A stretch of 34,489 nucleotides of DNA from Pseudomonadota bacterium (lineage in GTDB: Bacteria; Bdellovibrionota; FAC87; UBA2466), in NCBI GenBank assembly GCA_043718025.1, contig JAYSWN010000078.1:1-34489 (forward strand). Direction: 5' to 3'. Below are positions 1,773-31,316 of this stretch, piece by piece; the first letter of the stretch is position 1; each line of letters opens with the position of its first letter. The notes beneath the pieces are model-generated. The model was not told where the DNA came from and did not search any database. It worked only from the letters and a program-made list of their open reading frames with translations. The translations under genes were made by a program, and so were the position numbers.

Positions 1773-2444
1773 ATGGTAATTCAAACACTTAATACGCTAC
1801 GTCATGCCTTTGGCGAAGGTGGCTGGGGAATGTACCCCATCTTTTTCTTGGGCGTGGTGGGCTTTGCCATCGCCACCGAGCGCACGTTTAGCCTGTATCT
1901 GCGCATGAATTTAGATAAAGAGCACTTCTTCAAAAGCCTTACCACCTGTCTGCTGCACGGCGACTTAGAGGGAATGGTAGCGGTGTGCGACGAAAACCCC
2001 GCCCCACTCTCGAAGGTGATTAAGAATTGTTTGATTCGCCTGATTAACAAAGGCACCGATGCTGAAATTCAAGCCGCGCTCGATGAAGGCGTTTTAATTG
2101 AAGTGCCACGCATTGAACGCCGCATCGGATTTTTGGCGGTAATCGGCAACGTCGCCACGTTGATGGGTCTTTTGGGAACCATCACCGGCCTAATTCAAGC
2201 CTTTGGCGCCGTAGCTAATTCGGATCCGGTTACTAAGGCCGCGATTCTCACCAAGGGTATTTCTGAAGCGATGAACTGTACGGCCTTTGGCCTAATTGTG
2301 GCGGTGCCTTCGGTGCTGATCTATTCCATTCTTCAAGCCCGCGCCCAGACCGTGATCGACGACATTAACGAAATTAGTATTCGCACGTTCAACTTCATTC
2401 TCGCCAACCGCGAACGGTTCGGCATCGAATCTAAGGCGGCATAA
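1773..2444 (+). CDS. MotA/TolQ/ExbB proton channel protein (AglR-like)
   Basis: Three TM segments, TLMGLLGTITG and GISEAMNCTAFGL motifs; AGGAG RBS upstream. Confidence 0.92.
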   Translation: MVIQTLNTLRHAFGEGGWGMYPIFFLGVVGFAIATERTFSLYLRMNLDKEHFFKSLTTCLLHGDLEGMVAVCDENPAPLSKVIKNCLIRLINKGTDAEIQAALDEGVLIEVPRIERRIGFLAVIGNVATLMGLLGTITGLIQAFGAVANSDPVTKAAILTKGISEAMNCTAFGLIVAVPSVLIYSILQARAQTVIDDINEISIRTFNFILANRERFGIESKAA

Positions 2445-2450
2445 GTGGGA

Positions 2451-2894
2451 ATGAGCGGCGATTCGGGCGAGAAACTTAACGTCGAGCTTAATCTCGTACC
2501 GTTTATCGATCTGTTAAGTTCCCTCGTCTTGTTTCTATTGCTCACCGCCGTCTGGGTTCAAGTCTCCACCATCAATTCGCAGATTGAAAAGAAAGGGCCG
2601 GCCGCCTCCGCCGCAAAAAGAGAAGATAGCCAGCTCTCCATTCGTCTCACTGCCGCCGGATTCTCGCTGTCGTGGCCAAACCAGTTGGCAGGCTTTCCTG
2701 CAGAAATTGTGAAAAGCAAAGGGCAGTTTGATTACGCCGCCCTGGAAACCAAGCTTAAAGAGGGGCGTCAAAAATTTCCTGAGGTGAACGCTTCGGTAAA
2801 TGCCGACGATGAAGTGGATTACGGCGAAGTGATTCGAACCATCGACACCGGTAAACAGAGCGGTCTCACTACCGTTGGAATTGAGGCAGGGTGA
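2451..2894 (+). CDS. ExbD/TolR family protein
   Basis: LNLVPFIDLLSSLV single TM with conserved Asp; C-terminal ADDEVDYGEVIRTID motif; start either GTG 2445 or ATG 2451. Confidence 0.9.
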   Translation: MSGDSGEKLNVELNLVPFIDLLSSLVLFLLLTAVWVQVSTINSQIEKKGPAASAAKREDSQLSIRLTAAGFSLSWPNQLAGFPAEIVKSKGQFDYAALETKLKEGRQKFPEVNASVNADDEVDYGEVIRTIDTGKQSGLTTVGIEAG

Positions 2895-2895
2895 G

Positions 2896-3411
2896 ATGCC
2901 GATAAAGAAGGCCCGTCTAAAAATCAGTGACTACAGCGTCAACCGCAAGGGTCGGGTAAGTACCACCGAACGTAAGATTCGGATGGTGTCGCTATCGCTC
3001 ACTTCGATGGTCGACATGTTCGCCATCCTGGTTATCTTTCTGCTCTCCAGCCAAGATACCGCTACCCCCATGCTCGATTTTGGCCACGGCGTTCAGCTAC
3101 CCAAGGCCAAAACCGCGGCTCCGCCGCCCCAGGGAGTGACGTTAGAAATGGCCAGAAATGGAGTGTTTTTTGAGTCGAAGAAGTTGGCCGACCTCGACCA
3201 ATTGAAATCGACCGATGCAAAAACTCTGGCGCCGCTACGCCGTTGGTTAGAAGACCAGATCAAGGCCGATCTCGCCAATCCGGCTTCCGCCAAAAGGCTA
3301 AACTTGGTTGCCGACGAACGATTACCCTACGGTACGGTGAAGCGAGTGGTGGCCATGGCCAAACGATCGGGCTACGCCGAACTAAGTTTAGCCGTTGAGC
3401 CCAAAAAGTAG
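2896..3411 (+). CDS. Second ExbD/TolR family protein (AglS-like)
   Basis: LSLTSMVDMFAILVIFLL TM with Asp, LPKA and ADERLPYGTVKRV motifs; ATG at 2896 directly follows the previous stop. Confidence 0.88.
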   Translation: MPIKKARLKISDYSVNRKGRVSTTERKIRMVSLSLTSMVDMFAILVIFLLSSQDTATPMLDFGHGVQLPKAKTAAPPPQGVTLEMARNGVFFESKKLADLDQLKSTDAKTLAPLRRWLEDQIKADLANPASAKRLNLVADERLPYGTVKRVVAMAKRSGYAELSLAVEPKK

Positions 3412-19365: not shown

Positions 19366-19908
19366 CTACTTTGTCGGTGCAGGCTCGCGACGGGCGAAAT
19401 CGCGGTAGAGGTAGCTTGGCTGTATGTCACGGTTATCTTGATACTTACTTCGGTACTCATCAAACTGCCCTTTGATCTCGTGATAAAAAATCTGGCAGAT
19501 TTCGACTCCGGCGTAAACCCGGATAGGCTGAAGCACAAAAATTTCGAGTGTCCAAAAGCCACGAAAACCCACGTCGCCAAAGCCCGCGGTGATGTGCACC
19601 GCCATGCCCAAACGGCCAATTGACGAGCGCCCTTCCAGCATCGGAACAAAACCGCGTGTCTCGGTCAGCTCTTGAGTGCGACCCAGGTAGAGTTTTTGTG
19701 GTTCGAGCACCAAGCCTTCTTCAGGAATTTGAAAACGCTTAAGTGCCAACGGCTTCTTCATGTCGAGAATAGGGTCTTCGTACATGGCCAGATCAGGCGA
19801 GAGGCTTAAGTTGTAGCTGTTAGGCCCCACCCGTTTTGCATCGAACGGATCAATGGTGATGCTGCCCTTTTCGACTTCGGCTTGAATCTGTCGTCCCGAA
19901 AGAATCAT
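19366..19908 (-). CDS. dcd: dCTP deaminase
   Basis: MILS, PNSYNL, GRSSIGRLG, AGFGDVGFRG.WTLE, ICQI, KYQ motifs. Confidence 0.95.
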   Translation of the reverse strand: MILSGRQIQAEVEKGSITIDPFDAKRVGPNSYNLSLSPDLAMYEDPILDMKKPLALKRFQIPEEGLVLEPQKLYLGRTQELTETRGFVPMLEGRSSIGRLGMAVHITAGFGDVGFRGFWTLEIFVLQPIRVYAGVEICQIFYHEIKGQFDEYRSKYQDNRDIQPSYLYRDFARREPAPTK

Positions 19909-19952
19909 GCTGTTCTTCTCACCTAGGCCCGCAGCAATAGCAAGAGAAACAG

Positions 19953-19990
19953 AAAAAGGGCCAGCGCGCCGGTGAAGGTGCGCTGGCCCT
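19953..19990 (-). terminator. Intrinsic terminator
   Basis: GGGCCAGCGC...GCGCTGGCCC stem followed by TTTTTC on the minus strand, downstream of 20011..21183. Confidence 0.8.
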
Positions 19991-20010
19991 AGTTTAAACT
20001 GGAGCTTGGC

Positions 20011-21183
20011 TCAATTTTCTCGGCAGTACTGCGGAGAGTTAAGGCTTAAGAATCGAGTGAGCGCTGAGCGATTGAAATACTCCTCAGAACTCAAGAACTT
20101 TACTTCAACGTCGAAGCGAAACTGTCCTTTGGTCATCATCTGGTCCGTCCAATACTGAACGCCCGCCGCTTCGCCAACGCGACCTAAGTACTTGAGGTAC
20201 ATCGCCTGCGCGAATTTGATGCGGGCCTCAAAACTGTTAATAATGTCTAATGCCGTTAATGTGCGGTTGGCCCAGGTGTTCAGCGGACGAGCGTTTACCC
20301 AGTGAGTGATTTCCCATGACTGGATATAATCCGCAGGATTTTGGCTGTTGGGATTGCGACTCAACACCTTGCGGTAAATCTCCCGAATAAAGAGGCGATT
20401 ATTGCGTCTAAGGCGGGTTACGTAGTTAAGATTCGAGCCGTGAAACTCTGCCGTTACCTGCTCAATGCTGGCGCCTTCTTTCAAGCGATTAACAAAGTAA
20501 ATTCCTTCGTTCGGCCTTTGCAGCCGCTCGAGCACCGTACGGAAGAGACCGTCTACGATACGTTCGTAGTTCTCGTTAGACCGCACAATTCGTCGGGCCA
20601 ACTTTTCGCGAGTGGGCATGTCGTCTACGTTGGCGAGCTCTTTAATTGCGGCCACAAAACCGGCCGGGTCGGCCAAGCGTCCCAACACGTCTAAGTAGAG
20701 GGCTTCTACGTACGCAGCTTTGCGAGAAGCCTCATAGCCTAGCAAATCTTGAATTGAGCAGTAGTAGATATTTAGCAGTTCGGGCCGCGGAAAAAAGCGA
20801 ACGTTGGTTGGATTGATAAAAGAGGGAAGTACCGATTCGGGCGGAACTAATTTCTTGAACTTTTCAAAGTCAAAGCCCGTGGGCATCGACAAAGGAGCAA
20901 CTCCGGGAGTTTCGGTAAGGGAACTCAAGCCCTCAAATTGATTTTTCGTAGCGGGTGAGCCCATTCCAATAATGGTATTGGCCTCAGCGCCAATTTTTCC
21001 GGCCGGAGTTTCAGGGCCCTGTTTGAAATTGGTAGACGGCGTTGTGTCCGTTCCAAAATCGGAGGCCTGAACCTTATCTTCTACTTTTGTGTCCTTGCTA
21101 CCAGTTGGCGTTTGGCCGCAATTGGCGAGAGTGAGAAAAGAAAACGCAAGTAGGATCCTAGTAAACGTTCGGTGCTTATTCAT
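20011..21183 (-). CDS. Lipoprotein with four DUF4214-like helical repeats
   Basis: Lipobox LANC; low-complexity linker; repeats of the type (V/I)..LY..VLGR..D..G...W....F..S.E. Confidence 0.72.
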   Translation of the reverse strand: MNKHRTFTRILLAFSFLTLANCGQTPTGSKDTKVEDKVQASDFGTDTTPSTNFKQGPETPAGKIGAEANTIIGMGSPATKNQFEGLSSLTETPGVAPLSMPTGFDFEKFKKLVPPESVLPSFINPTNVRFFPRPELLNIYYCSIQDLLGYEASRKAAYVEALYLDVLGRLADPAGFVAAIKELANVDDMPTREKLARRIVRSNENYERIVDGLFRTVLERLQRPNEGIYFVNRLKEGASIEQVTAEFHGSNLNYVTRLRRNNRLFIREIYRKVLSRNPNSQNPADYIQSWEITHWVNARPLNTWANRTLTALDIINSFEARIKFAQAMYLKYLGRVGEAAGVQYWTDQMMTKGQFRFDVEVKFLSSEEYFNRSALTRFLSLNSPQYCREN

Positions 21184-21223
21184 TGTTGTGTCCCCCAGAA
21201 TGAATCTGTCTAGAGGTATGAGT

Positions 21224-21240
21224 ATGCAAAGGGGATACCC
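21224..21240 (-). promoter_or_regulatory. Sigma54-like -24/-12 element
   Basis: GGGTATCCCCTTTGCAT (GG-N10-GC with TTGCA) about 40 nt upstream of the 21183 start. Confidence 0.5.
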
Positions 21241-21330
21241 ACAGGCGTCAGGCCTGAAGGCAACGGCAAAAAGTTAGTTACTCAGTAAAAGGATTGAGCA
21301 GCTGCTAAAAAGATCTACGAGAAGCGAAGC

Positions 21331-21846
21331 TTATTTCGCGTCGCCGATGGCTTTTCTCACTTCCGCGAAAATTATGTCGACCGAGGCCCCAATCGCCTTA
21401 AATGCCAGTCGGTTATCCCGCCCGATGATGACCACATTGGGGATAAACAGCGGTGGCGCAAAGAAGTACCGGCCAGCGTCTTTGGGGCTGGCGGCGACCA
21501 AAAAGGGAATTTTGTGTCGTTCTTTCCAACTCTTTAAGAACTCAGCCGAGGGTGGCACCCCCTGCATGTCACCCTGGGCGGATAAACTGAAAAAAGTAAC
21601 TGGCTTGTCATCAAACTCGCTCACCCGGCGGGCCAGCTCGCCCATCTCTTTGTTACAGTCAGGGCACCAGCCCGTGCCAAAAACCAGTACGCGCACATTG
21701 CCCACGAACATAGGGTGGCAAACCAACTTCTCGGTCATCGTAAGCCAGCAAAACTCGGGCACATCGTCACCGACTTCAATTACGGCATTAGCTAGCGGCG
21801 AAAAAAGGAGTGCGAGAAACAGAAATATTGCGGCTGAATTCTTCAT
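21331..21846 (-). CDS. TlpA-like thioredoxin-fold protein
   Basis: Signal peptide, VGD.VP.F, WCPDC active site, cis-Pro motif FIP. Confidence 0.82.
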   Translation of the reverse strand: MKNSAAIFLFLALLFSPLANAVIEVGDDVPEFCWLTMTEKLVCHPMFVGNVRVLVFGTGWCPDCNKEMGELARRVSEFDDKPVTFFSLSAQGDMQGVPPSAEFLKSWKERHKIPFLVAASPKDAGRYFFAPPLFIPNVVIIGRDNRLAFKAIGASVDIIFAEVRKAIGDAK

Positions 21847-21953
21847 TTGGTGTCCCCCAACGTAAGTGTGAGCGACGACCCCTTGGGTGACAAGCCCACA
21901 GCGTCAAAGAAGATGTTCAAGCTGGTGCACCAAAAAGAGGATGCGAAGCCGCG

Positions 21954-23147
21954 CTACTGAGTGAGGTCAGGCCGAGGGGCCGAGGGGCTAACATTATAAG
22001 GGGGCAGTTCGGCGGCACGGTAATCAGGCAGTTCCGCAAACGCTTTGGGCCTTAAGAACTTAGCCAATGCCTGGTCAAACCCATCGCGAAACCGCTGTTT
22101 GAATTTTTCTCGGCTAAAATCGCGTGCCCTTGCGATACACGCCGAGGACGAAAAAGGAGGCCCCGCTTCAAACTCCACCATCGCTGCCACCAGCCCTTTG
22201 GCCGTCGCCGACGAAAAGAGAATTCCGGTTTCACCGTCCACCACGGTGTCTAACGCTCCCCCACGCCCATAAGCAATTACCGGGCGACCCATCGCCATCG
22301 CCTCGAGGGGCACAATGCCAAAATCCTCTTCACCCGGAAATAACAAAGCTTTGCAATTTTCATAAGCGCTACGAAGTTGCTCAAACGGCACACGCCCCAA
22401 AAAAGTAACGTTGGGGCCCGCTTTGGTCTTAAGCCTCGCCATTTCAGGCCCTTCGCCAACGATGAGCAAACGGCGATGCAAAATTTGACAAGCCTCAATC
22501 GCCATTTCCACGCGCTTATAGGGCACTAACGCCGACGCCACCAAATAATAATCGTTTGTCGGAATGGCCCCGGTGGGCTTAAACGCGTGCAAGTCTACGA
22601 ACGCCGGAATCACTTCAGCCTCGCGCCGATAGTAAAGGCCAATGCGGCGGGCCACCGAATGTGAGTCGGCGATAAAATGGTCGACCCGCGCGGCGGTGGT
22701 CGAATCCCACATCCTCAGGTAGTGCAAAATCAAAAAGGCAAACGGCTCCCAAGCTTTTTTTGCGAAGTAGTTCGAGTACTGATCCCACGCGTAGCGCATC
22801 GGCGTGTAGACGTAGCTTAGGTGAAACGCATGCGGCGGGGCGATCACCCCTTTGGCTACGCAATGGCTCGACGAAATCACAATGTCGTACTCTTTCAAAT
22901 CCCATCGCTCGACGGCCAGCGGAAACAGAGGCAGCAAAAAGCGGTAAAACCGATGCGCTCCAGGAATGCGATTAAGAAACGAGGCAATGATACGGTGGCG
23001 CTCAATGGTGGGGCAGACGCGGCCCTTGCGATAAAAAAGCGTGTAGATATCGGCATCGGGATAGAGTTCGCACAGAGCCTCTAATACCTTTTCACCGCCA
23101 CGATAGTGCAATAGCCAATCGTGAATGAGGGCGACCTTTTTTTTCAT
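21954..23147 (-). CDS. GT4 family glycosyltransferase
   Basis: HDWL...GGEKV, TPMRYAWD, YKR, EDFGIVPLEAMAMGRPV. Confidence 0.92.
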   Translation of the reverse strand: MKKKVALIHDWLLHYRGGEKVLEALCELYPDADIYTLFYRKGRVCPTIERHRIIASFLNRIPGAHRFYRFLLPLFPLAVERWDLKEYDIVISSSHCVAKGVIAPPHAFHLSYVYTPMRYAWDQYSNYFAKKAWEPFAFLILHYLRMWDSTTAARVDHFIADSHSVARRIGLYYRREAEVIPAFVDLHAFKPTGAIPTNDYYLVASALVPYKRVEMAIEACQILHRRLLIVGEGPEMARLKTKAGPNVTFLGRVPFEQLRSAYENCKALLFPGEEDFGIVPLEAMAMGRPVIAYGRGGALDTVVDGETGILFSSATAKGLVAAMVEFEAGPPFSSSACIARARDFSREKFKQRFRDGFDQALAKFLRPKAFAELPDYRAAELPPYNVSPSAPRPDLTQ

Positions 23148-24568
23148 CAGTAAGCGTTCCTATGGAAAAAACCGCGCATCAAAGTGAGAACCAAAATCTT
23201 GATATCCAAGGCGTGTGACCAATGCCCAATATAGTACAGGTCGTGCTTGATACGCTCTTCAATTGAGGTGTTGCCTCGCCAGCCGTTGATCTGCGCCCAA
23301 CCGGTCATTCCCGACTTCATGCGATGGCGGAGCATGTACTTAGGAACCTCTTTACGAAACTGTTCTACAAACACCGGGCGTTCGGGCCGCGGCCCCACCA
23401 AACTCATTTCACCGCGGAACACATTCCAGAGCTGAGGAAATTCGTCGACGTTCGATTTGCGTAAAAAGCGACCAAACGGCGTCACCCTAGGATCTTCAGG
23501 CCGCGCCCAAACGGCGCCGGTCAGGGTCTCGGCGTTCTGGGCCATGGAACGAAATTTGTGCATTTTAAAAACCTGACCGTCGGCGCCCACCCGCACCTGC
23601 CCGTAAAAAATGGGGCCCTTGGAAGTCAGTTTTACTAATAGCGCAATGAGAGCAAAGAGTGGCGAGAGCAGAATCATCCCCACTAAAGAGCCAATCACAT
23701 CAATCGTGCGTTTCAGAAAGCGATCGCTAGCCCCCGAGGTGGGCTCGTTCACCGCCAAAAGGGGAATACCGCACTCTTCACGCGCCTGATAAGTAAAGGT
23801 GCTATGCCGACCGTAATCAGGAAGCACTTTCACTTCTAATAGCTGATGCGAAAGAGTTTCTAAAACCGGCTCGAGTTTGGTCGACTCTTGATGTGGATAA
23901 GCCACCACCACAACGTCTACCGCGTAGTCTCCCAGCACCCGCAGCAGATCAACCTCGGTGCCCAGATCTTTAACCCGTCCGCGGGCATTGCGCTCGGCAT
24001 AGGCGGTTCCAAGGTACCCCACCCATTCAAACGGATAAGGCCGCACGCTTTCGAGCTGGTTTTGGTAGAGGTCGAGCAATTCACCGCCCCCCATGAGTAG
24101 CACCCGGCGCGGCCGCACAAACCAGGTCTCAAGAGCGTTCCAGAGCAAAAACAGTAGGGCTCGCCCCGTGGTCACCGCGGCGCCAACCATGGCTCCAAAT
24201 AGTAAAAGATAAACGCGAGAGTAATCGAGTTCGTTGCGAAAATAGAGAAGCGCAATAAACACCAAAGTGGCCAAAATGGTGCCCTCCGCCACTTTTTTTA
24301 GTGATCGGAAGCCAAAAACGATGCGATCGCGGCGATAAACTCCCACCACATGGAACACCGCAGAAAACACGATGGCGATGGGAATAGTGAGCCGCGTATA
24401 GGCCTCGAGGTTAGGAATTCCTTTGGGGGCCGCGAACCAGGTCGTCCCGAAACGCATAACCCATACGAGTCTCCAGGCGTAGGCCACCGCCGCGAGATCT
24501 AAGAGCTTAGAAATCGCCACAAAAACAAACTGGGCCTGATTGAAGTCAAGACGCCGCCGAAAAGCCAT
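23147..24568 (-). CDS. Undecaprenyl-phosphate glucose phosphotransferase (WcaJ-like polyprenyl glycosylphosphotransferase)
   Basis: N-terminal TMs, KRTID, KFRSM, DPRVT, DEFPQLWNV, SLVGPRPE, GMTGWAQ; stop overlaps the GT4 start (TGATG). Confidence 0.93.
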   Translation of the reverse strand: MAFRRRLDFNQAQFVFVAISKLLDLAAVAYAWRLVWVMRFGTTWFAAPKGIPNLEAYTRLTIPIAIVFSAVFHVVGVYRRDRIVFGFRSLKKVAEGTILATLVFIALLYFRNELDYSRVYLLLFGAMVGAAVTTGRALLFLLWNALETWFVRPRRVLLMGGGELLDLYQNQLESVRPYPFEWVGYLGTAYAERNARGRVKDLGTEVDLLRVLGDYAVDVVVVAYPHQESTKLEPVLETLSHQLLEVKVLPDYGRHSTFTYQAREECGIPLLAVNEPTSGASDRFLKRTIDVIGSLVGMILLSPLFALIALLVKLTSKGPIFYGQVRVGADGQVFKMHKFRSMAQNAETLTGAVWARPEDPRVTPFGRFLRKSNVDEFPQLWNVFRGEMSLVGPRPERPVFVEQFRKEVPKYMLRHRMKSGMTGWAQINGWRGNTSIEERIKHDLYYIGHWSHALDIKILVLTLMRGFFHRNAY

Positions 24569-24710
24569 CCGGCGAATGTAAACGCGACCCGTCTTCTTTC
24601 CCAGCCTTTTTTTCTTCCATTGATAGAGTCAAAAACTTATAATAATAAGGTACTTACCAATGTGAGTCGTTCACTCCCGCAGTCATTTATAAAAACACCC
24701 GGAGGGGGTT

Positions 24711-24986
24711 GTGACAAAATCCGAATTGATTGAGACTTTGGCGCGCAAAGCCAATCTCACAAAGAAGAAGGCCGAAGAATTAGTTAACACCATTTTCGAC
24801 GCCTTTTTCGTGTCGATGGTAAAGGGCGATCGCATCGAAATACGCGGCTTTGGGTCGTGGTTTGTGAAACAGTACAAATCGTACGTGGGACGCAATCCAA
24901 AGACCGGCGCCGACGTATTCGTGCCGGAAAAAAAATTGCCGTTCTTCAAAGTTGGTAAAGAGCTTAAGAAGCGTATCGACTCGTAA
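24711..24986 (+). CDS. ihfB: Integration host factor beta / HU family DNA-binding protein
   Basis: TKSELI, RIEIRGFGS, GRNPKTG, PFFKVGKELK; GTG start after GGAGGGGG. Confidence 0.88.
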   Translation: MTKSELIETLARKANLTKKKAEELVNTIFDAFFVSMVKGDRIEIRGFGSWFVKQYKSYVGRNPKTGADVFVPEKKLPFFKVGKELKKRIDS

Positions 24987-25021
24987 GGGTTTGTACCCGT
25001 TCATCGTTGGAGCATAAACCC

Positions 25022-25120
25022 GCGCTGGTGCCTTTTGAATTTTCAAATTTGAAAGGACCGATGGCGCGGGACAGGCGCCACTGCTCCTTTCAAATTTGAA
25101 AATTCAAAAGACACCAGCGC
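25022..25120. repeat. Long inverted repeat (36-bp arms, 1 mismatch, 27-nt loop); REP/MITE-like
   Basis: GCGCTGGTGCCTTTTGAATTTTCAAATTTGAAAGGA pairs with TCCTTTCAAATTTGAAAATTCAAAAGACACCAGCGC. Confidence 0.9.
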
Positions 25121-25156
25121 TCGTTGGGAGCTGCAGGCGAAGACTTAGTTTAAAAG

Positions 25157-25189
25157 AAAAAGGGCTCGGCTTACGCCGGGCCCTTTTTT
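25157..25189. terminator. Bidirectional intrinsic terminator
   Basis: AAAAAGGGCTCGGC-TTAC-GCCGGGCCCTTTTTT between convergent ihfB and the PuuD-like gene. Confidence 0.85.
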
Positions 25190-25217
25190 ATTTGTAATAA
25201 GCAGATTGTTCCTTGGC

Positions 25218-25832
25218 TTACGCCGGAACCGTAATTTTGGGGGCGTATTTGTACGCCAACCAGACCACACCACAACCAATGGCAATACAGGCTACCAACG
25301 TAAATCCGTTGATGCTGGGGTAGTTATTGGGAGCGATCATGCCGAAGAGCATCGGCCCCGAAAGGTACGTATTTACCTTTGACATGTGGGCGGCACGTTT
25401 CACAAGCGCGGGCATTTCTGGCGGGCTCTGGGCCGCTTTCACCCAACCCAAGATCTGTTTTTGGGCAGGCCAAATGATAAACCACACGTTGAACCACATA
25501 ATGCTTCCCAGCGTTGAGCCGAAAAGAATCCACATCGCCCGTTGAGTAAATTTGCCTTCGGTGTCGTACCAAAGGTTTCCACCCGAATATTTCACGAAAA
25601 GCAGTGTCCACCCGACGATAAAGGTGACCATTGCTCCCCAACGAAACCACCACAAAGCACGGTGTAGCAGTTGCGGATTCACCGCCGGCTTAAGCTCTTT
25701 AGCCAATTGGGTTTGAAAATTTGCATTCACGAAATTGAAAAAATAGAGATGACCAATCCACGTAATACCCGCAATCACGTGCAGCCACCGCAGAATGAAA
25801 AGTAAATTTGTATATAAATCGTCAAAGGCCAT
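25218..25832 (-). CDS. Urate hydroxylase PuuD-like (Urate_ox_N) membrane protein
   Basis: RWLHVIAGITWIGHLYFFN, ALWWFRW, IMWFNVWFIIWPAQK, NTYLS.P; ATG at 25832 after GGAGGG. Confidence 0.8.
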   Translation of the reverse strand: MAFDDLYTNLLFILRWLHVIAGITWIGHLYFFNFVNANFQTQLAKELKPAVNPQLLHRALWWFRWGAMVTFIVGWTLLFVKYSGGNLWYDTEGKFTQRAMWILFGSTLGSIMWFNVWFIIWPAQKQILGWVKAAQSPPEMPALVKRAAHMSKVNTYLSGPMLFGMIAPNNYPSINGFTLVACIAIGCGVVWLAYKYAPKITVPA

Positions 25833-26116
25833 GAGCCCCTCCACAAGTTTCGATTAGCCCCGCGCGCTGTCAGTGAAACCTACAATTGGTTTCGTCTTGC
25901 TCTACCGCGATGGCGAAAAATAATTGCAGATTCCACCACTTAAAAAAGGGTTAGGCCAGCTATTTCTCAATTGACACAGCGTCACTAAATTAGACGGCGC
26001 AAGTGCCCGAAACCCCTGACCTTCAGGCTTAAGGCCAAAGCCACCGGTTGCTGTAGACTCAAACCGCCTTTTTGGTATTCACCCCGCCCTTGAGTGCACC
26101 AAAAGAATACAAGCTA

Positions 26117-26133
26117 CGGTCCAGCGTATGCAC
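26117..26133 (+). promoter_or_regulatory. Sigma54-like -24/-12 element
   Basis: CGGTCCAGCGTATGCAC (GG-N10-GC); GC ends 15 nt before ATG 26147. Confidence 0.4.
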
Positions 26134-26146
26134 TGTTTTACGATCA

Positions 26147-27157
26147 ATGAGAGGCATCATCGTTCACAACTACCTATTGGCCGTGGGGCTTTTGCTCGTT
26201 CAGCCGCTACACGCTGAAGACGCGTTGAGTGGGGCCGCCGCCATCATCGGCGCCGCAGCTCCGATTGCCGTGGCCGGAATTCAAGCTGGCGCAGACAAAG
26301 CCATCGCCAAACTGAATGCCGCCGCCGAGTTAAAGAAGACCGAAATCAATGCCGATGTGGCGCGCGATACCAATCGTACCAATGCCACCATCGAATTAGA
26401 CCGAACCAAAACCGCCGCCGAAATCAACGCCATCAATCAAGAGGGATTGACCGATCGCCAGGCGATTGTATCGACGGAAAAAATTATTGCCACCCGAGAG
26501 GCCTATGCCACGCAGCGAGAAAAAAATTGGCGCGATTACGAATACAGCATCGCCCGCCTTCTCTCCGACGACAAAGCCCGTGAGCAGCAATTGGCTTTGG
26601 AGAAGCAAGCCCGCGACCTTCAAACTTCGATCGGAATGTTAGCGTCCACCGGATCTAATGGCGGGCTCACTATCAACCGGGTGGAGGCAGTAGCCGACCC
26701 GAGCGCGACCAATTCGCTTGCCGCCGCCGATACGTCGACAACCGCTACCGCCCTTGCCTCGGCAGGCACCCCTGAGCCTCAGCGTGCCAATACCGTTCAG
26801 AGTCGCTTAACCCGCACTTTGGCCGCTACTATCCCTTCAATGGCAGAAAAATTGACCGGCTTCCGCGCCAGTAAAAGAACCTCTTCCGTAGCTTCGCTTC
26901 CCCAGCTCGTGGCCACCGCCGCCCGGGTGGAGAAAAATAACCCGCTAGTCCGCGGGTCGCGCAGCACAAAACTTTTGCCGATTGCACTGGTGGCTGAAGA
27001 GACCCAAATTAAAACGTTGGGCAAAGTAGCTACCTCTCAGCGGGCGGCCTACTCTACTGGCATAGGCCACGGCACGATTGGTCGCCAAAACCAAGCCCCC
27101 CTGTTCGCCAGCGGCGACGGCGGCAGCGAATCAAGTCACGGTCACCACCAACATTGA
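26147..27157 (+). CDS. Hypothetical secreted protein: hydrophobic helix plus coiled coil, low-complexity tail
   Basis: Signal peptide ending LHA-E; module paralogous to the middle of 27513..29957; His-rich C-terminus; ATG 26147 preferred over TTG 26072. Confidence 0.75.
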   Translation: MRGIIVHNYLLAVGLLLVQPLHAEDALSGAAAIIGAAAPIAVAGIQAGADKAIAKLNAAAELKKTEINADVARDTNRTNATIELDRTKTAAEINAINQEGLTDRQAIVSTEKIIATREAYATQREKNWRDYEYSIARLLSDDKAREQQLALEKQARDLQTSIGMLASTGSNGGLTINRVEAVADPSATNSLAAADTSTTATALASAGTPEPQRANTVQSRLTRTLAATIPSMAEKLTGFRASKRTSSVASLPQLVATAARVEKNNPLVRGSRSTKLLPIALVAEETQIKTLGKVATSQRAAYSTGIGHGTIGRQNQAPLFASGDGGSESSHGHHQH

Positions 27158-27400
27158 GCGGTGGCGGGATGCGTATGCAGAAAACATCCGCGCGAATACA
27201 GCTAGTAACTCACTAAAATTAATCATTAATTCCTTAAAACAGCGCAACGACCAAACTCTGGACATAAGAACTTCAATGGTTCTAGGGCGTTACGATTTTG
27301 ACCAAGCAGGGGTGTAAACAATCTGCACTACCCCTTCCCTCGCTGGAGCGAAAACCTAAGGTTTCACGCAGGGTTATAGACAAGCAGTATTCACCAAAGT

Positions 27401-27417
27401 TGGCCGGCCGTGTGCAA
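27401..27417 (+). promoter_or_regulatory. Sigma54-like -24/-12 element
   Basis: TGGCCGGCCGTGTGCAA (TGGC-N8-TGC) in the long intergenic region upstream of 27513. Confidence 0.55.
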
Positions 27418-27512
27418 TTTAAACCAAGTAACAGAACCTTTATTTGCAGCTCTATCGGTACGTGCTCTTCACAGTTCAGACAGCAAAAAATCCTTTGGGG
27501 GATTTGAGTTAA

Positions 27513-29957
27513 ATGCACCGACGATTTTCCAACCTAAGCATCAAGGCCTTGACCGCACGAACACGCTCGTTCGTAGCTCACGTCATGATTGCTGCGCTAC
27601 TGCTTCCCGCGGCACCGCTGCACGCGGCCAAGCCCGGCGCCCCTCAAACTGGCTTTACCGCTGGTGGCCTAATGGGCCTCTCTGGATTTAGAACTTTAGT
27701 GCTCACAATCGCCATGGTGAACAAAGCCATGCGCGATGCTTCCGAAAACCCAATGGATGAATGGCGCCGCCAAAACGTGCGCATTGCCATGGGCCTTATG
27801 CCCGGGGCGATTGCCGGCATGGCCAAACACTTTTTCAATGGTCAGCTTGGCAATGGAGATCTTCCCGGCATTCAGGCAATGCTGGGCGGCTTCGTCGATA
27901 AGAACGCTGGCGATAATTACAAAAAGTTTTTGCTTAAGCCCGATAAGAACTTAATTCCCAAAACGGGCGCCAATTTTCCGAATGTACAAGCTCCGCCCGT
28001 GCCACGCTCCAGCGGCGATGCCGGAGTTGCCACAACCTCATCGAAGTCGGGAGACGCCAGCGTAGCCAACGGCCCAGTTTCTAAGCCCGCAGTCGACAAG
28101 ATGCCGACCAAAGAGATGGTCAGCTACTCCCAACGGTTAGAAGCTAAAACCGGCAGCACTAAGAGTGTTGGATACGATGACAGCGTTGCCAAGGCTTCGA
28201 ACGAAGGTACGGCGCCGAATTATTTGGAAGGCAAAGTTGCCAAACCCGAGGTTTCCTCCACACCGCAAGAAAATTTTGGCACTCGCGAAACCGCTTCGGT
28301 AGGCCCAACCGGTCAAGCCGGATCCTCGGCCGCGGAAGTTCCTAAAAACCGCGCCGGTTTACCTTACATTGGTAGCGAAACGGTAATGGAAGCCTCGCGC
28401 GAGATGCGAAGTTTAGAAGGCCGCGCTCCGGCTTCGTCGGGTGAAACCTCTTCTCTCTCGGTGATTCGTACGGGCAAAGAGAAAAAAGGCGACAGCGCTT
28501 CTGAGGATGAAGAGTTTTTCTCTAGCGTCGGTAAAGATGGCCAGGCTAAAAACAAAGCCAAATTAAAAAAGAAGTTAGAGCGTCGCCCCTCTACCAAGCC
28601 AACTTCGTTCCGCGGCAACAACCACTTCTTACGCTTCTTCGCCTTAGGCCTTAGCGCCATCACTACCGATGCCCATGCCGAAGGAGAAGAGGGCCAGCGC
28701 TCCGGCGCCGACGCCGGAATGATTTTAATGGGAATCGCCGCCATCATCGGAGCCATTGCGCCTATTTTTATTGCCAGCACGCAAGCTAACGCCGACAAGG
28801 CAATCGCTAAAACTAACGCCGATGCCCAGATCAAGATGACCGAGATCAGCGCCTCTACCCAAAAAGAGGCCAACAATATTGCTAGAGACGTAGCCCTCAC
28901 CCAAAGCGCCACCGCTAAAGAGGTGGCGATCACCAATAATGAAGCCGTGACTGACCGCTTGAATATTCAACTGGCTGAGCTGCGCTCGGCGAGAGGCGAA
29001 GCCCAGCAAGCCGAACGGGAACGCCGGCAATTAGATGAGTCTTACAATCAACAACGCATTGCTTTGGCCGAAAAGCAGTCACAACAAAATTTAGATCTAG
29101 CCAAAGAGACTTTGGCCGCCCAGTTAAGCGAAGCTGGCCTGCGCCAAGGCTTTTCTAACTCGGCCAATTCAGGCAATCGTTTAACGACGACAACCACGAT
29201 CGCGGCGGCAGGCAGTTCAAATTCTTCCGGCACTAGCAGAACTTCGGCCGGCGCCGGCGCCTCGGCCTCGGTGGGGCAGGCTTTTTCACAAGCCTCTGCC
29301 GCAAAGGGAACGGGTAACGTGAGTGCCTCAGGTTCGGCGGCTGCTTCCAACTCTAGTCGTGGCCCGGCTTCGGTAGAAACTAACAAAGGCAACACGATGG
29401 CAACGCGGCTTTCAGGAGTCTCGGCTCGTGGCGCTACGGGTGAGACCAGCGAACTAGACCCCAATTTTGCCGCCTCAACTACCTATGGCGAAGACGCGGT
29501 AAAAGCTTGCGCAGGATTAAAGGATAAAAAGGAAAAAAAGGATGAGTATTTAGCGTGCTTAAAATCCCAAAGCAAATCGCGCGGCGCAAGTCCGACTCGC
29601 AGCCGACTTTTAAAAGCCAACACACTAGCCTTTAGCGCTAACGCCGCGCCACGAGGATTTGCCGCTCGCTTATCGGCGGTCACCAATCCCACGGTGGGCG
29701 GTTCCACTGCCGGCAACTTGCAAGAGACCGCCGAGATGCGCGCCTTCGCCGGCAATCGGCCCAATCCTTTAAATAAAGGGAGCAGCTTTGGCGATTTTAT
29801 AGGAGGCAGTCGCGGCTCAGCGAAACCTTCAGATGATTTTGCCGGCTACCGCGCCAGCGGAGAAACCCCGCACCGCAACTTAAGCTCCGACGTTCAAAAG
29901 ATTAGCGGCGGGCACAAAGCCGAGAGTCGGGGCATTCGGGGTTTAATCGAGCCCTAA
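27513..29957 (+). CDS. Large hypothetical secreted protein with internal hydrophobic and coiled-coil module
   Basis: 814 aa ORF; signal peptide ending LHA-A; Ser/Ala/Gly-rich disordered regions; shares a module with 26147..27157. Confidence 0.8.
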   Translation: MHRRFSNLSIKALTARTRSFVAHVMIAALLLPAAPLHAAKPGAPQTGFTAGGLMGLSGFRTLVLTIAMVNKAMRDASENPMDEWRRQNVRIAMGLMPGAIAGMAKHFFNGQLGNGDLPGIQAMLGGFVDKNAGDNYKKFLLKPDKNLIPKTGANFPNVQAPPVPRSSGDAGVATTSSKSGDASVANGPVSKPAVDKMPTKEMVSYSQRLEAKTGSTKSVGYDDSVAKASNEGTAPNYLEGKVAKPEVSSTPQENFGTRETASVGPTGQAGSSAAEVPKNRAGLPYIGSETVMEASREMRSLEGRAPASSGETSSLSVIRTGKEKKGDSASEDEEFFSSVGKDGQAKNKAKLKKKLERRPSTKPTSFRGNNHFLRFFALGLSAITTDAHAEGEEGQRSGADAGMILMGIAAIIGAIAPIFIASTQANADKAIAKTNADAQIKMTEISASTQKEANNIARDVALTQSATAKEVAITNNEAVTDRLNIQLAELRSARGEAQQAERERRQLDESYNQQRIALAEKQSQQNLDLAKETLAAQLSEAGLRQGFSNSANSGNRLTTTTTIAAAGSSNSSGTSRTSAGAGASASVGQAFSQASAAKGTGNVSASGSAAASNSSRGPASVETNKGNTMATRLSGVSARGATGETSELDPNFAASTTYGEDAVKACAGLKDKKEKKDEYLACLKSQSKSRGASPTRSRLLKANTLAFSANAAPRGFAARLSAVTNPTVGGSTAGNLQETAEMRAFAGNRPNPLNKGSSFGDFIGGSRGSAKPSDDFAGYRASGETPHRNLSSDVQKISGGHKAESRGIRGLIEP

Positions 29958-30000
29958 CCATTTCTTAAGGGGGTAAGGATACGACAAACGTAGTCCTTCG

Positions 30001-30036
30001 AGGGGAGAGTTCCCAAAGACTCTCCCCTTTTTTTTT
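30001..30036 (+). terminator. Intrinsic terminator
   Basis: AGGGGAGAGT...ACTCTCCCCT followed by a long T run. Confidence 0.88.
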
Positions 30037-30252
30037 CAGTCCCCACCAAAATTAAATCACCCTCCACTGAAGACAAGCAGTAAACAGCCCGTGTACTCAC
30101 TGCATACACACCAAAGTTCAATGCTCTTAAGCAGTTACTAATTGCTGGGCGGACTTTGACCAAAGGATCCGCATGGTTTTTGGTGTTTAAGATCTATCGA
30201 TGATAAAAATGAGGTAGTTTCAAATAGATAGCCGCCAATTTTCATTCACCTT

Positions 30253-30268
30253 TGGCAAGCTTCGTGCT
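30253..30268 (+). promoter_or_regulatory. Sigma54-like -24/-12 element
   Basis: TGGCAAGCTTCGTGCT (TGGCA-N7-TGCT); GC ends 17 nt before ATG 30285. Confidence 0.6.
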
Positions 30269-30284
30269 CTATCTCTAGTTAGAT

Positions 30285-31316
30285 ATGACACTTAAGCCGC
30301 AAAACCTTTGCCTCCTTTTAGTGACGTGTGCCTTTAGCGCCACGCCCGTCTGGGCCGAGTACGCCGCCGGCGGCATTGAAGAGGCTCAAGCACTGCCCAA
30401 GGTCATTACCGACACCAAAGCCCCCATCTCTCCCGAAACGATGGCGGCGGTGATTGCTAAGGTAAAAGCCAATCCGGCCCTCACGAATGCTTTGATTCAA
30501 GCAAACCCTCGCTACAAAGCCCTTTTGGGTCTTGGTGAAAATAGTGCCCCGGCACCATTGGCCAACGTGGCTTCCGGAGCCGAGGCTCCCCCCGTGGCCT
30601 TCACACCGGCGCCACGCCACTCGCCCGCTTCAAAAGAAAGCGTTCGATTGAATGAAACGCTGCTGCAGGTACGAAATATTTTAGGCGGCGCAGAACCGCA
30701 ATTCGCCACCTCCGCTCCCAGCGCGGACCGTAACGATCAAGCTTTTGCCCAACAAAACATTCCCGACACCAACCGTTTTGGTGAACCACTCACTATTTCT
30801 GAGGCCGCCACGCCGGCCTCTGGCCGCCGCTTATTGGGCGGTTTAGATCCGCAAAATTCCCGACGCGAGCGTTCGGCAGAAATTCTCGAACTAAAAAGAA
30901 AAATCTTATTGCAGAAAGAACGCCGTTTTGCCCGGCTCTCTAATTCAAATGGGGGAGCCTCGCTTCAGGCGTCTTTAGAATTTAACCGTCGCGTTCGCGG
31001 CGCCGTTGGCCCGCAAGGCGATGGCCGCGGTTTTCAGCTTGCGATGCGCGACATTTCAGAGACCGCAGAACCGCGCCCCGCTCCAAATGATTCGATTCGA
31101 CGCCGTAAGATCATCGGCGGAGAAAATCGCGTGGCCAAGCCCGTATCGGCAACCGAAGAGACCGATCTCATTTCACACAAGTACCTATACAGCACCGCCG
31201 TGATTAAAGAAGGCGCCGAAGGCGGTGGCGGAATTGGCGAAGCCATCAAGCAGAGCGTATCCCAGTCGATCGCTAAGCCCCAAACGGCCGGGCCGCTCGA
31301 ACCCCGGCTGCGCTAA
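30285..31316 (+). CDS. Hypothetical secreted protein, largely low-complexity
   Basis: Signal peptide ending VWA-E; Pro/Ala-rich; short basic helix. Confidence 0.7.
   Translation: MTLKPQNLCLLLVTCAFSATPVWAEYAAGGIEEAQALPKVITDTKAPISPETMAAVIAKVKANPALTNALIQANPRYKALLGLGENSAPAPLANVASGAEAPPVAFTPAPRHSPASKESVRLNETLLQVRNILGGAEPQFATSAPSADRNDQAFAQQNIPDTNRFGEPLTISEAATPASGRRLLGGLDPQNSRRERSAEILELKRKILLQKERRFARLSNSNGGASLQASLEFNRRVRGAVGPQGDGRGFQLAMRDISETAEPRPAPNDSIRRRKIIGGENRVAKPVSATEETDLISHKYLYSTAVIKEGAEGGGGIGEAIKQSVSQSIAKPQTAGPLEPRLR

Follow-up and report, generated by a model that had tools for sequence, protein, structure and literature searches.

The locus examined here raises the question of what is built from two predicted secreted proteins that share one long, repetitive helix with each other and fall into no recognisable family. 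It lies on the 34,489-nucleotide contig JAYSWN010000078.1 (the whole of it termed the window below) of a bacterium deposited as Pseudomonadota (assembly GCA_043718025.1; GTDB lineage Bacteria; Bdellovibrionota; FAC87; UBA2466), where three co-oriented genes on the + strand were named A (26147..27157, 336 residues from the ATG), B (27513..29957, 814 residues) and C (30285..31316, 343 residues, predicted to be secreted and without the shared module). An earlier note, made from the DNA letters, had proposed that all three encode an undescribed secreted system, perhaps a helical tube or membrane-inserting apparatus. In this study, A and B are found to be a real, order-specific and undescribed system of two core genes, and the leading, although tentative, reading of them is that these lineage-specific paralogues form an exported, heteromeric, membrane-inserting parallel α-helical tube of about 18 nm.

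The three open reading frames are present, with signal-like N-termini read from the sequence, and all three fall below the Pfam and NCBIfam cut-offs, in agreement with the earlier statement that they belong to no known family; the sole family match of gene A is a sub-cut-off one to TMP_2 (E = 0.009). Gene A, the start codon of which is backed by alignment to genus relatives, consists of a predicted signal peptide (residues 1–23, 26216 being the first position after it; 26147..26215, read from the sequence and in the same place 5′ of the module in relatives), module copy 1 (26216..26641), in which a weakly hydrophobic helix (about 26225–26284) is followed by a hendecad helix, and a Ser/Thr/Ala/Gly- and Arg-rich tail with a His-rich end. 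Gene B encodes a predicted signal peptide (residues 1–38, 27513..27626, from the sequence and a model helix at 8–30), a conserved N-domain predicted from sequence conservation and a model to be a four-helix bundle (27645..28007), a disordered linker, a processing-like site, module copy 2 (28707..29141), in which a helix of transmembrane strength (about 28722–28778) precedes the hendecad helix, and a tail. The shared module claimed earlier was recovered by BLASTP (39% over 184 columns, E = 7e-16), with the quoted glycines located at 26231 and 28731, and the query genome holds exactly two copies; the disordered tail after the module was likewise seen in AlphaFold2, in which both linker and tail are disordered. 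The tails of the family are Ser/Thr-rich and Arg-rich (median net charge +8 to +10), His-rich ends are common to A-type and B-type proteins, and two tail motifs recur, RLL in 36/89 A-type and 33/68 B-type proteins (6 and 4 expected from shuffles) and an SDLxxF-like motif in 34 and 31 (shuffle expectation 2).

The module was found by a single-sequence search in 26 of 33 genomes of the same family, two of four of the same order and none of 23 others, and by a 39-row profile, built from the window and 19 of the searched genomes, which therefore match by construction, in 31 of 33 and four of four, respectively, and in none of 263 other phylum genomes, a set without named Bdellovibrio or Myxococcus that may not be the nearest outgroup. 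The two same-family genomes without a profile match are one with a divergent copy under a wider profile and one that is 73% complete. Among 1.84 billion representatives, 209 passed an E value of 0.001 and 185 passed 1e-10 in the profile search, and the relatives analysed below are the best 150 of those 209; those with names are annotated as hypothetical and come from unclassified bacteria, Proteobacteria or Deltaproteobacteria. A single-sequence, word-limited search of 5.8 billion proteins returned only A itself, and no module match was found in phage records and viral contigs. The profile search for range and synteny thus shows an order-restricted module and a syntenic A/B pair: among 20 loci chosen from the module matches, 19 have a tandem of at least two module genes and the twentieth ends inside B, with the same divergent urate-oxidase-N gene upstream in 19 and a WcaJ-type gene in 17. 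The A/B locus is a vertically kept chromosomal locus under strong purifying selection, with a module gene copy number of 2–3, occasionally more.

The module comprises 145 residues, namely the hydrophobic helix and about 120 residues of continuous helix, and in the single-chain AlphaFold2 model residues 399–543 of B form one unbroken helix. The 11-residue periodicity noted earlier is clear in both window proteins (lag-11 z of 3.6 for A and 4.1 for B) and stronger in the 150 relatives, where self-similarity against column shuffles reaches z = 7.1 at lag 11 and 4.1 at lag 22, with a lag-7 z of 4.5 over the whole module and 2.9 over the coil, and a lag-11 signal of 6.2 in the first half of the coil and 3.1 in the second. 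The hydrophobicity of the relatives peaks at a period of 2.2 (power 10–14), which is the second harmonic on an 11/3 helix and therefore implies two interaction faces about 165 degrees apart; these are repeat positions 1/5/9 and 3/7/11, and position 4, in the narrow arc between them, is 56% N/Q/R. By coiled-coil geometry, a helix with two such faces is better suited to sheets, wide barrels or tubes than to small bundles. Of 171 modules, 165 have kept their net length, and about 120 residues at 1.5 Å each would give a tube of about 18 nm, which is near the membrane spacing of 20 nm given for B. bacteriovorus in a figure legend of bioRxiv 2022.06.13.496000.

From its sequence, B is likely a polyprotein cut at an internal site. 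Its N-domain occurs once in 17 of the 18 order genomes searched and twice in one, and is modelled as a helical bundle (predicted local distance difference test score 88.5) with generic structural matches only. After 200 residues of disordered linker there follow in order a basic stretch, an amphipathic helix and an Ala-x-Ala motif, 8–46 residues ahead of the module helix; in the window this predicted second signal-peptidase-I site (28566..28679, + strand) consists of a Lys/Arg-rich stretch, the helix 371–383 and Ala-x-Ala to A389, which is conserved at 90% at least. By a rule set post hoc, after the sequences had been viewed, the site is present in 54 of 68 B proteins, the other 14 failing the rule; of 377 control windows drawn from the linkers and tails of the same proteins, 4 pass it. 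The alanines at −3 and −1 after the helix, as signal peptidase I requires, are both conserved, which argues against a fusion scar, and the site is retained by diverged genes and by those with another upstream part. In A-type genes the equivalent position is occupied by an ordinary signal site (81/89 with a loose pattern lacking controls), so that almost all copies would end up, once matured, with their N-terminus free beside the hydrophobic helix. The query genome encodes three signal peptidases; internal sites of the B kind number two in 1179 genes, B and one unconvincing case, and RxPAS-type motifs in general show no enrichment in that genome. In 24 of 68 B proteins, a Gly-rich segment separating the internal site from the helix contains a pair of Cys residues, often as CxxC; the B of the window lacks this pair. 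Whether or not a tube is formed, the processing of a bacterial polyprotein by signal peptidase would be easy to test at this conserved amphipathic Ala-x-Ala site.

The greatest doubt about the tube concerns topology. On a position-independent insertion scale, A-type helices score a median of +3.4 (n = 89, 2% below +1) and are too weak to stop translocation, whereas B-type helices score a median of +1.0 (n = 68), like the ExbB/ExbD segments in the window (0.1–1.6). The strength of the latter would allow the helix, once the chain is cleaved, to stay in the inner membrane, N-terminus out and C-terminus in as in M13 procoat, with the hendecads forming an SPFH-like cytoplasmic ring or cage that serves as a membrane scaffold or in membrane repair under sigma-54 control, the N-domain being shed to the periplasm. 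An internal site 8–46 residues before the helix would be reachable by signal peptidase if the helix anchors the chain, the tails are Arg-rich, and SPFH cages are paralogue pairs with hendecads, while PspA is sigma-54-driven. However, the A-type helices are far weaker, the module helix is followed by no positive excess (net charge −0.3 to −0.4) and no SPFH domain was found in A or B, so we consider such a cage unlikely. Full export of both proteins, as the tube requires, is favoured because A cannot anchor and A and B appear to co-evolve.

In the module tree, A modules group beside the B of their own genus (seven changes), although monophyly of A is not rejected by the approximately unbiased test (p = 0.12; four f2/G007 rows left out), and the B nearest to an A is that of its own genome in 11 of 16 genomes. 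Between genera, A/B quartets show 80 concerted versus 17 paralogue-specific sites of 108, the sites being non-independent; within family f2, the paralogues have residues in common that are specific to their species (eight concerted versus two paralogue-specific for G035 and G037) with four-fold sites near saturation, and the G035 paralogues are identical at 113 of 118 positions and share 15 of 51 four-fold sites, compared with 107–108 of 118 for orthologues. Shared synonymous changes (13 to 6 and 18 to 3) suggest episodic gene conversion plus strong selection; recent A/B conversion in family f1 was considered and is unconvincing (four-fold identity 0.35 versus 0.29 for other genomes). As read from these alignments, concerted evolution fits in-register A/B co-assembly, but also repeated re-derivation of A from B.

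Each of the three genes has its own sigma-54-type site: a degenerate one (−24 GG/−12 GC) 5′ of A at 26116..26132, with the same variant in 4/4 genus genomes; one 5′ of B at 27400..27416, the top match in the genome for a matrix trained without the window; and one 5′ of C at 30252..30268, third genome-wide in the same matrix scan (all + strand). The matrix gives 65 matches genome-wide versus 44 in a shuffle, so only top matches are credible. In all 21 loci the second gene has a −24/−12 site with a score of 16 or more (shuffle p ≤ 0.04) in front of it; the first gene has one in 16 of the 21, of which one is probably misplaced. Among the 25 top sites, 19 precede a gene with an N-terminal hydrophobic stretch, against 1461 of 3484 genes overall, and sigma-70 promoters occur at chance level. 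An intrinsic-terminator-like site with a 12-bp stem and a T run lies 3′ of B (30000..30037, + strand); with 10 such sites versus 10.6 in shuffles, it is singled out by length and position only. These per-gene promoters and the B/C terminator, together with the folded N-domain and the internal Ala-x-Ala site of B, go beyond what the earlier note had described.

Such an arrangement resembles that of tandem flagellin genes, with their own promoters, gene conversion and glycosylation neighbours, and a surface filament or coat is conceivable in which long helices polymerize with a stagger, hydrophobic N-termini lie in the core and variable, possibly glycosylated tails lie outside. The tandem paralogues each with a sigma-54-type promoter, the synonymous changes pointing to episodic conversion, the GT4, WcaJ-type and GT2 genes at the flanks of the locus, the Ser/Thr-rich tails and the copy number of 2–3, at times more, would all suit it. 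Nevertheless, the long-range or anti-diagonal covariation expected of a stagger was not found, the only covariation within the module being between i+3/4/7/11 helical neighbours in a shallow alignment (effective number of sequences about 120), no assembly ATPase or secretin is present at the locus, and the glycosyltransferases may be unrelated neighbours; we give the filament the same low probability as the cage. A small right-handed bundle of two to four helices, acting as a periplasmic spacer, adhesin stalk or tether, would also account for a continuous helix of fixed length and for a weak peak of side-chain volume at 3.62 (p = 0.03), but requires one hydrophobic stripe at 3.5–3.67, where the power is 0.1–2.2 compared with 10–14 at 2.2, which makes it improbable. 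Least probable of all is a diffusible pore-forming toxin pair aimed at competitors or prey, or a domesticated phage pilot gene, since the hydrophobic helix at a free N-terminus, the resemblance of the start of A to T7 gp14 (38% over 50 residues, pairwise E = 6e-4, chosen post hoc) and the match of phrog_5158 to 10 of 39 members (best E = 4e-4) are set against a fixed core locus under strong purifying selection, the lack of an immunity-like neighbour there, the lack of matches in phage records and viral contigs, and gp14 scores like those of shuffles (96/500).

The wide, parallel helical tube could be assembled as follows. Sigma-54 likely activates A, B and C from their separate promoters. Sec export and a signal-peptidase cut would free the N-terminus of A about three residues before its hydrophobic helix, while B would be exported as a precursor, the amphipathic helix of which would lie on the periplasmic face of the inner membrane and present Ala-x-Ala to be cut as well, so that the N-domain is let go and the module gains a free N-terminus. 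The freed, predicted four-helix N-domain might act as a chaperone, nucleator or cap. The modules would then pack via seams 1/5/9 and 3/7/11, with the Gln/Asn-rich position 4 facing the lumen, like the hendecads of protein H of phage phiX174, and their N-terminal hydrophobic helices would form a ring that enters a membrane. The tube may span one periplasm width as a conduit or tether, and the bridged envelope could, at about even odds, be that of the cell itself or that of prey after type II secretion.

Several points weigh against this tube. Two-seam hendecads also fit staggered filaments or SPFH-type cages, and the 2.2 peak reaches significance in some single sequences only (p = 0.003 for A46–105, 0.12 for B423–543 and 0.08 for H itself). 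The structure models are of single chains, the oligomeric state being a prediction, and B could be arrested in the inner membrane, leaving its coil cytoplasmic. The internal site lacks a classical hydrophobic core, its segment being amphipathic with E/H/K/R and below membrane strength, and, as stated, was scored post hoc. Within genera, paralogue-specific sites prevail (20.2 to 2.3), separate promoters and a terminator are unlike a stoichiometric operon, no immunity, motor or secretion genes were found at the locus in the window and the 20 loci, and the likeness to protein H is weak evidence of homology (hhalign 0.65%; 8 of 499 shuffles score as high). The earlier proposal of a helical membrane apparatus is thus supported in part, by the conserved syntenic pair, the two-seam hendecads and the concerted evolution; its third gene lies outside the conserved core, and homology to protein H or to translocators is unsupported.

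The third gene was removed from the shared system because it carries no module, is restricted to the genus with this query (4/4 genus genomes, 0/34 other order genomes) and lies 3′ of the terminator; it shares no sequence with A or B (best E 2.4 and 0.47). C is likely a co-regulated accessory. In other genera its slot is taken by other small signal-peptide proteins, or by none, and homology of C to these was rejected, the likeness being confined to the signal region (hhalign 5.6%). One such third-slot family in genus g12 (200 residues; L042:11440-12057, L039, L044, L046 and L047) has RLL and SDL motifs and a start weakly like that of the module (hhalign 22%), and is possibly a degenerate paralogue. 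Other sigma-54-type sites near the top of the ranking (G000 C64, C126, C166, C115 and C192) lie ahead of genes for orphan proteins that have a signal peptide, low-complexity segments and short helices, and these may form a regulon of uncharacterised secreted proteins. Constant upstream neighbours of the locus are the genes for a urate-oxidase-N membrane protein (window 25218–25844) and IHF/HU (24711–24986); IHF commonly assists sigma-54 promoters.

Type II secretion, type IVa pili, two Tad-type secretins and another pilus-type secretin locus are encoded in the query genome, as are RpoN and 14 strong enhancer-binding proteins, a gene set that we take to be Bdellovibrio-like; GspK was found in 34 of 38 order genomes. 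It is conceivable, although unlikely, that in a predatory lineage A and processed B leave by type II secretion and together form a heteromeric tube of 18 nm that crosses the envelope of the prey and serves for feeding or delivery; a bacterial polyprotein with the N-domain as its own chaperone would be activated by signal-peptidase cleavage, and the result would be a cell-encoded counterpart of a phage ejection tube. The predatory lifestyle is a prediction from gene content only, which weighs against the tube. A flagellar role of A/B was ruled out because the pair is kept where FliF was not found: FliF occurs in 33 of 34 order genomes outside genus g1 and in none of four inside, all four of which keep the module. 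In genus g1 (G000–G003), the four genomes of which yielded no FliF, A also sits on a long branch and its promoter is degenerate. Elsewhere in the window, an ExbB/ExbD/ExbD triplet (1773–3411) is arranged like the AglRQS gliding motor. On another contig of the query genome, a Tad locus (L072, G000:C19 about 19600–28481) contains a DUF6531 (RHS-associated) gene together with a pair of RcpC genes and resembles the Bdellovibrio hit/tad region.

Rearranged module genes were seen in genus g5 (L041:5942-7594 and L057:2957-4594), family f2 (L048 and L063) and G008 (L055), the changes comprising an altered N-terminal part or an exchanged N-domain, as well as sets of three module genes and of two N-domain genes, and most of these architectures retain an internal Ala-x-Ala site. 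In G016 (C35, L035:1944-4193), an anti-sigma-like/vWA-like gene about 3 kb from B, labelled from its sequence, contains two B-module pieces in swapped order (86% and 82% DNA identity over 56–57 nt), found in none of the other 37 order genomes; it looks like a one-off DNA capture. G036 has two different locus copies (C283 and C70), one module-identical to that of G035, and this is probably bin contamination.

Phage virions provide known examples of such helical conduits. Should the tube prove real, a cell would make an envelope-spanning helical conduit from two small exported genes, without a motor or β-barrel, and a concrete candidate would be at hand for envelope bridging by Bdellovibrio-like bacteria, the contact structures of which (portal and rose-like complex) are described in the accessible text on B. 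bacteriovorus without identified proteins (bioRxiv 2022.06.13.496000). In addition, the module supplies barrel designers with a naturally occurring two-seam hendecad and can serve as a marker of the order.

Comparison with known systems shows likenesses of A and B to several architectures. No usable family or fold match was obtained in Pfam, PHROGs, NCBIfam, PDB sequences, or Foldseek against PDB and viral structures, nor in the ESM Atlas (best scores 0.78 and 0.75), and the VIA wide search gave generic four-helix bundles (best Z 7.6); matches to an Rz-like spanin (1/39, E = 2e-4), TMP_2 and HpsJ were judged compositional. The A/B family is undescribed in the literature searched, which left most subscription papers, supplements and the 2023 hendecad catalogue (Martinez-Goikoetxea and Lupas) outside its scope, and that catalogue (e.g. 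MACH) may bear on its novelty. Tripartite pore formers of the ClyA family and type III secretion system translocators are likewise helical proteins with a hydrophobic segment from co-oriented genes, whereas the module, unlike their folded bundle with its hairpin, is a single unbroken helix; Pfam, NCBIfam, Foldseek and VIA gave no match to them, fold searches being weak on single helices and small bundles, and homology to translocators is unsupported, A and B carrying Sec-type signals and YscJ/FliF not being found in 4/4 module-bearing genus genomes (77–94% complete). SPFH cages (HflK/HflC, prohibitins and flotillins) are wide barrels that combine a paralogue pair, a membrane helix and a hendecad coil; A and B differ in their predicted cleavable signal peptides and internal processing site, and have no Band_7 match, the module helix running directly into the coil. 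For the processing of B, a likeness exists to B. japonicum FbcH, a precursor cut by signal peptidase at an internal site. In pestivirus Erns, as far as the accessible text of PMC3937272 describes it, an amphipathic helix serves as a signal-peptidase site; the predicted cut of B differs from both in that it would detach a soluble helical domain from a structural subunit, and the sequences are unrelated. T7 gp14, which according to the accessible part of PMC8954989 forms a hexameric helical outer-membrane pore, and P22 gp7 share a free N-terminal hydrophobic helix followed by an Ala/Gln-rich helix, although gp14 has no 11-residue repeat (lag-11 z 0.6–0.8) and profile homology to it was rejected (hhalign 0.23%). 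The closest likeness remains the phiX174 protein H tube (PDB 4JPN), a decamer of 170 Å with an N/Q/R-lined lumen as given in the available text of PMC7354561: the hendecad register with two seams, the amide-rich putative lumen position and the spectral signature (periods 5.66 and 2.2 and lag-11 z 5.9 for H 141–200) are alike, and the coil of the predicted A/B tube, at about 120 residues, is of similar length, whereas homology is unsupported, H being the best of three matches in a PDB sequence search (E = 0.089) and Microvir_H matching one of 39 members (E = 0.007). A and B stand in housekeeping chromosomal surroundings, with no microvirus context in the window and 20 loci, and are core genes with signal peptides, whereas H is virion cargo; they are a paralogue pair with predicted precursor processing and long tails; and their repeat spans the whole coil, whereas that of H turns to heptads after residue 194 (PMC7354561, Table 1).

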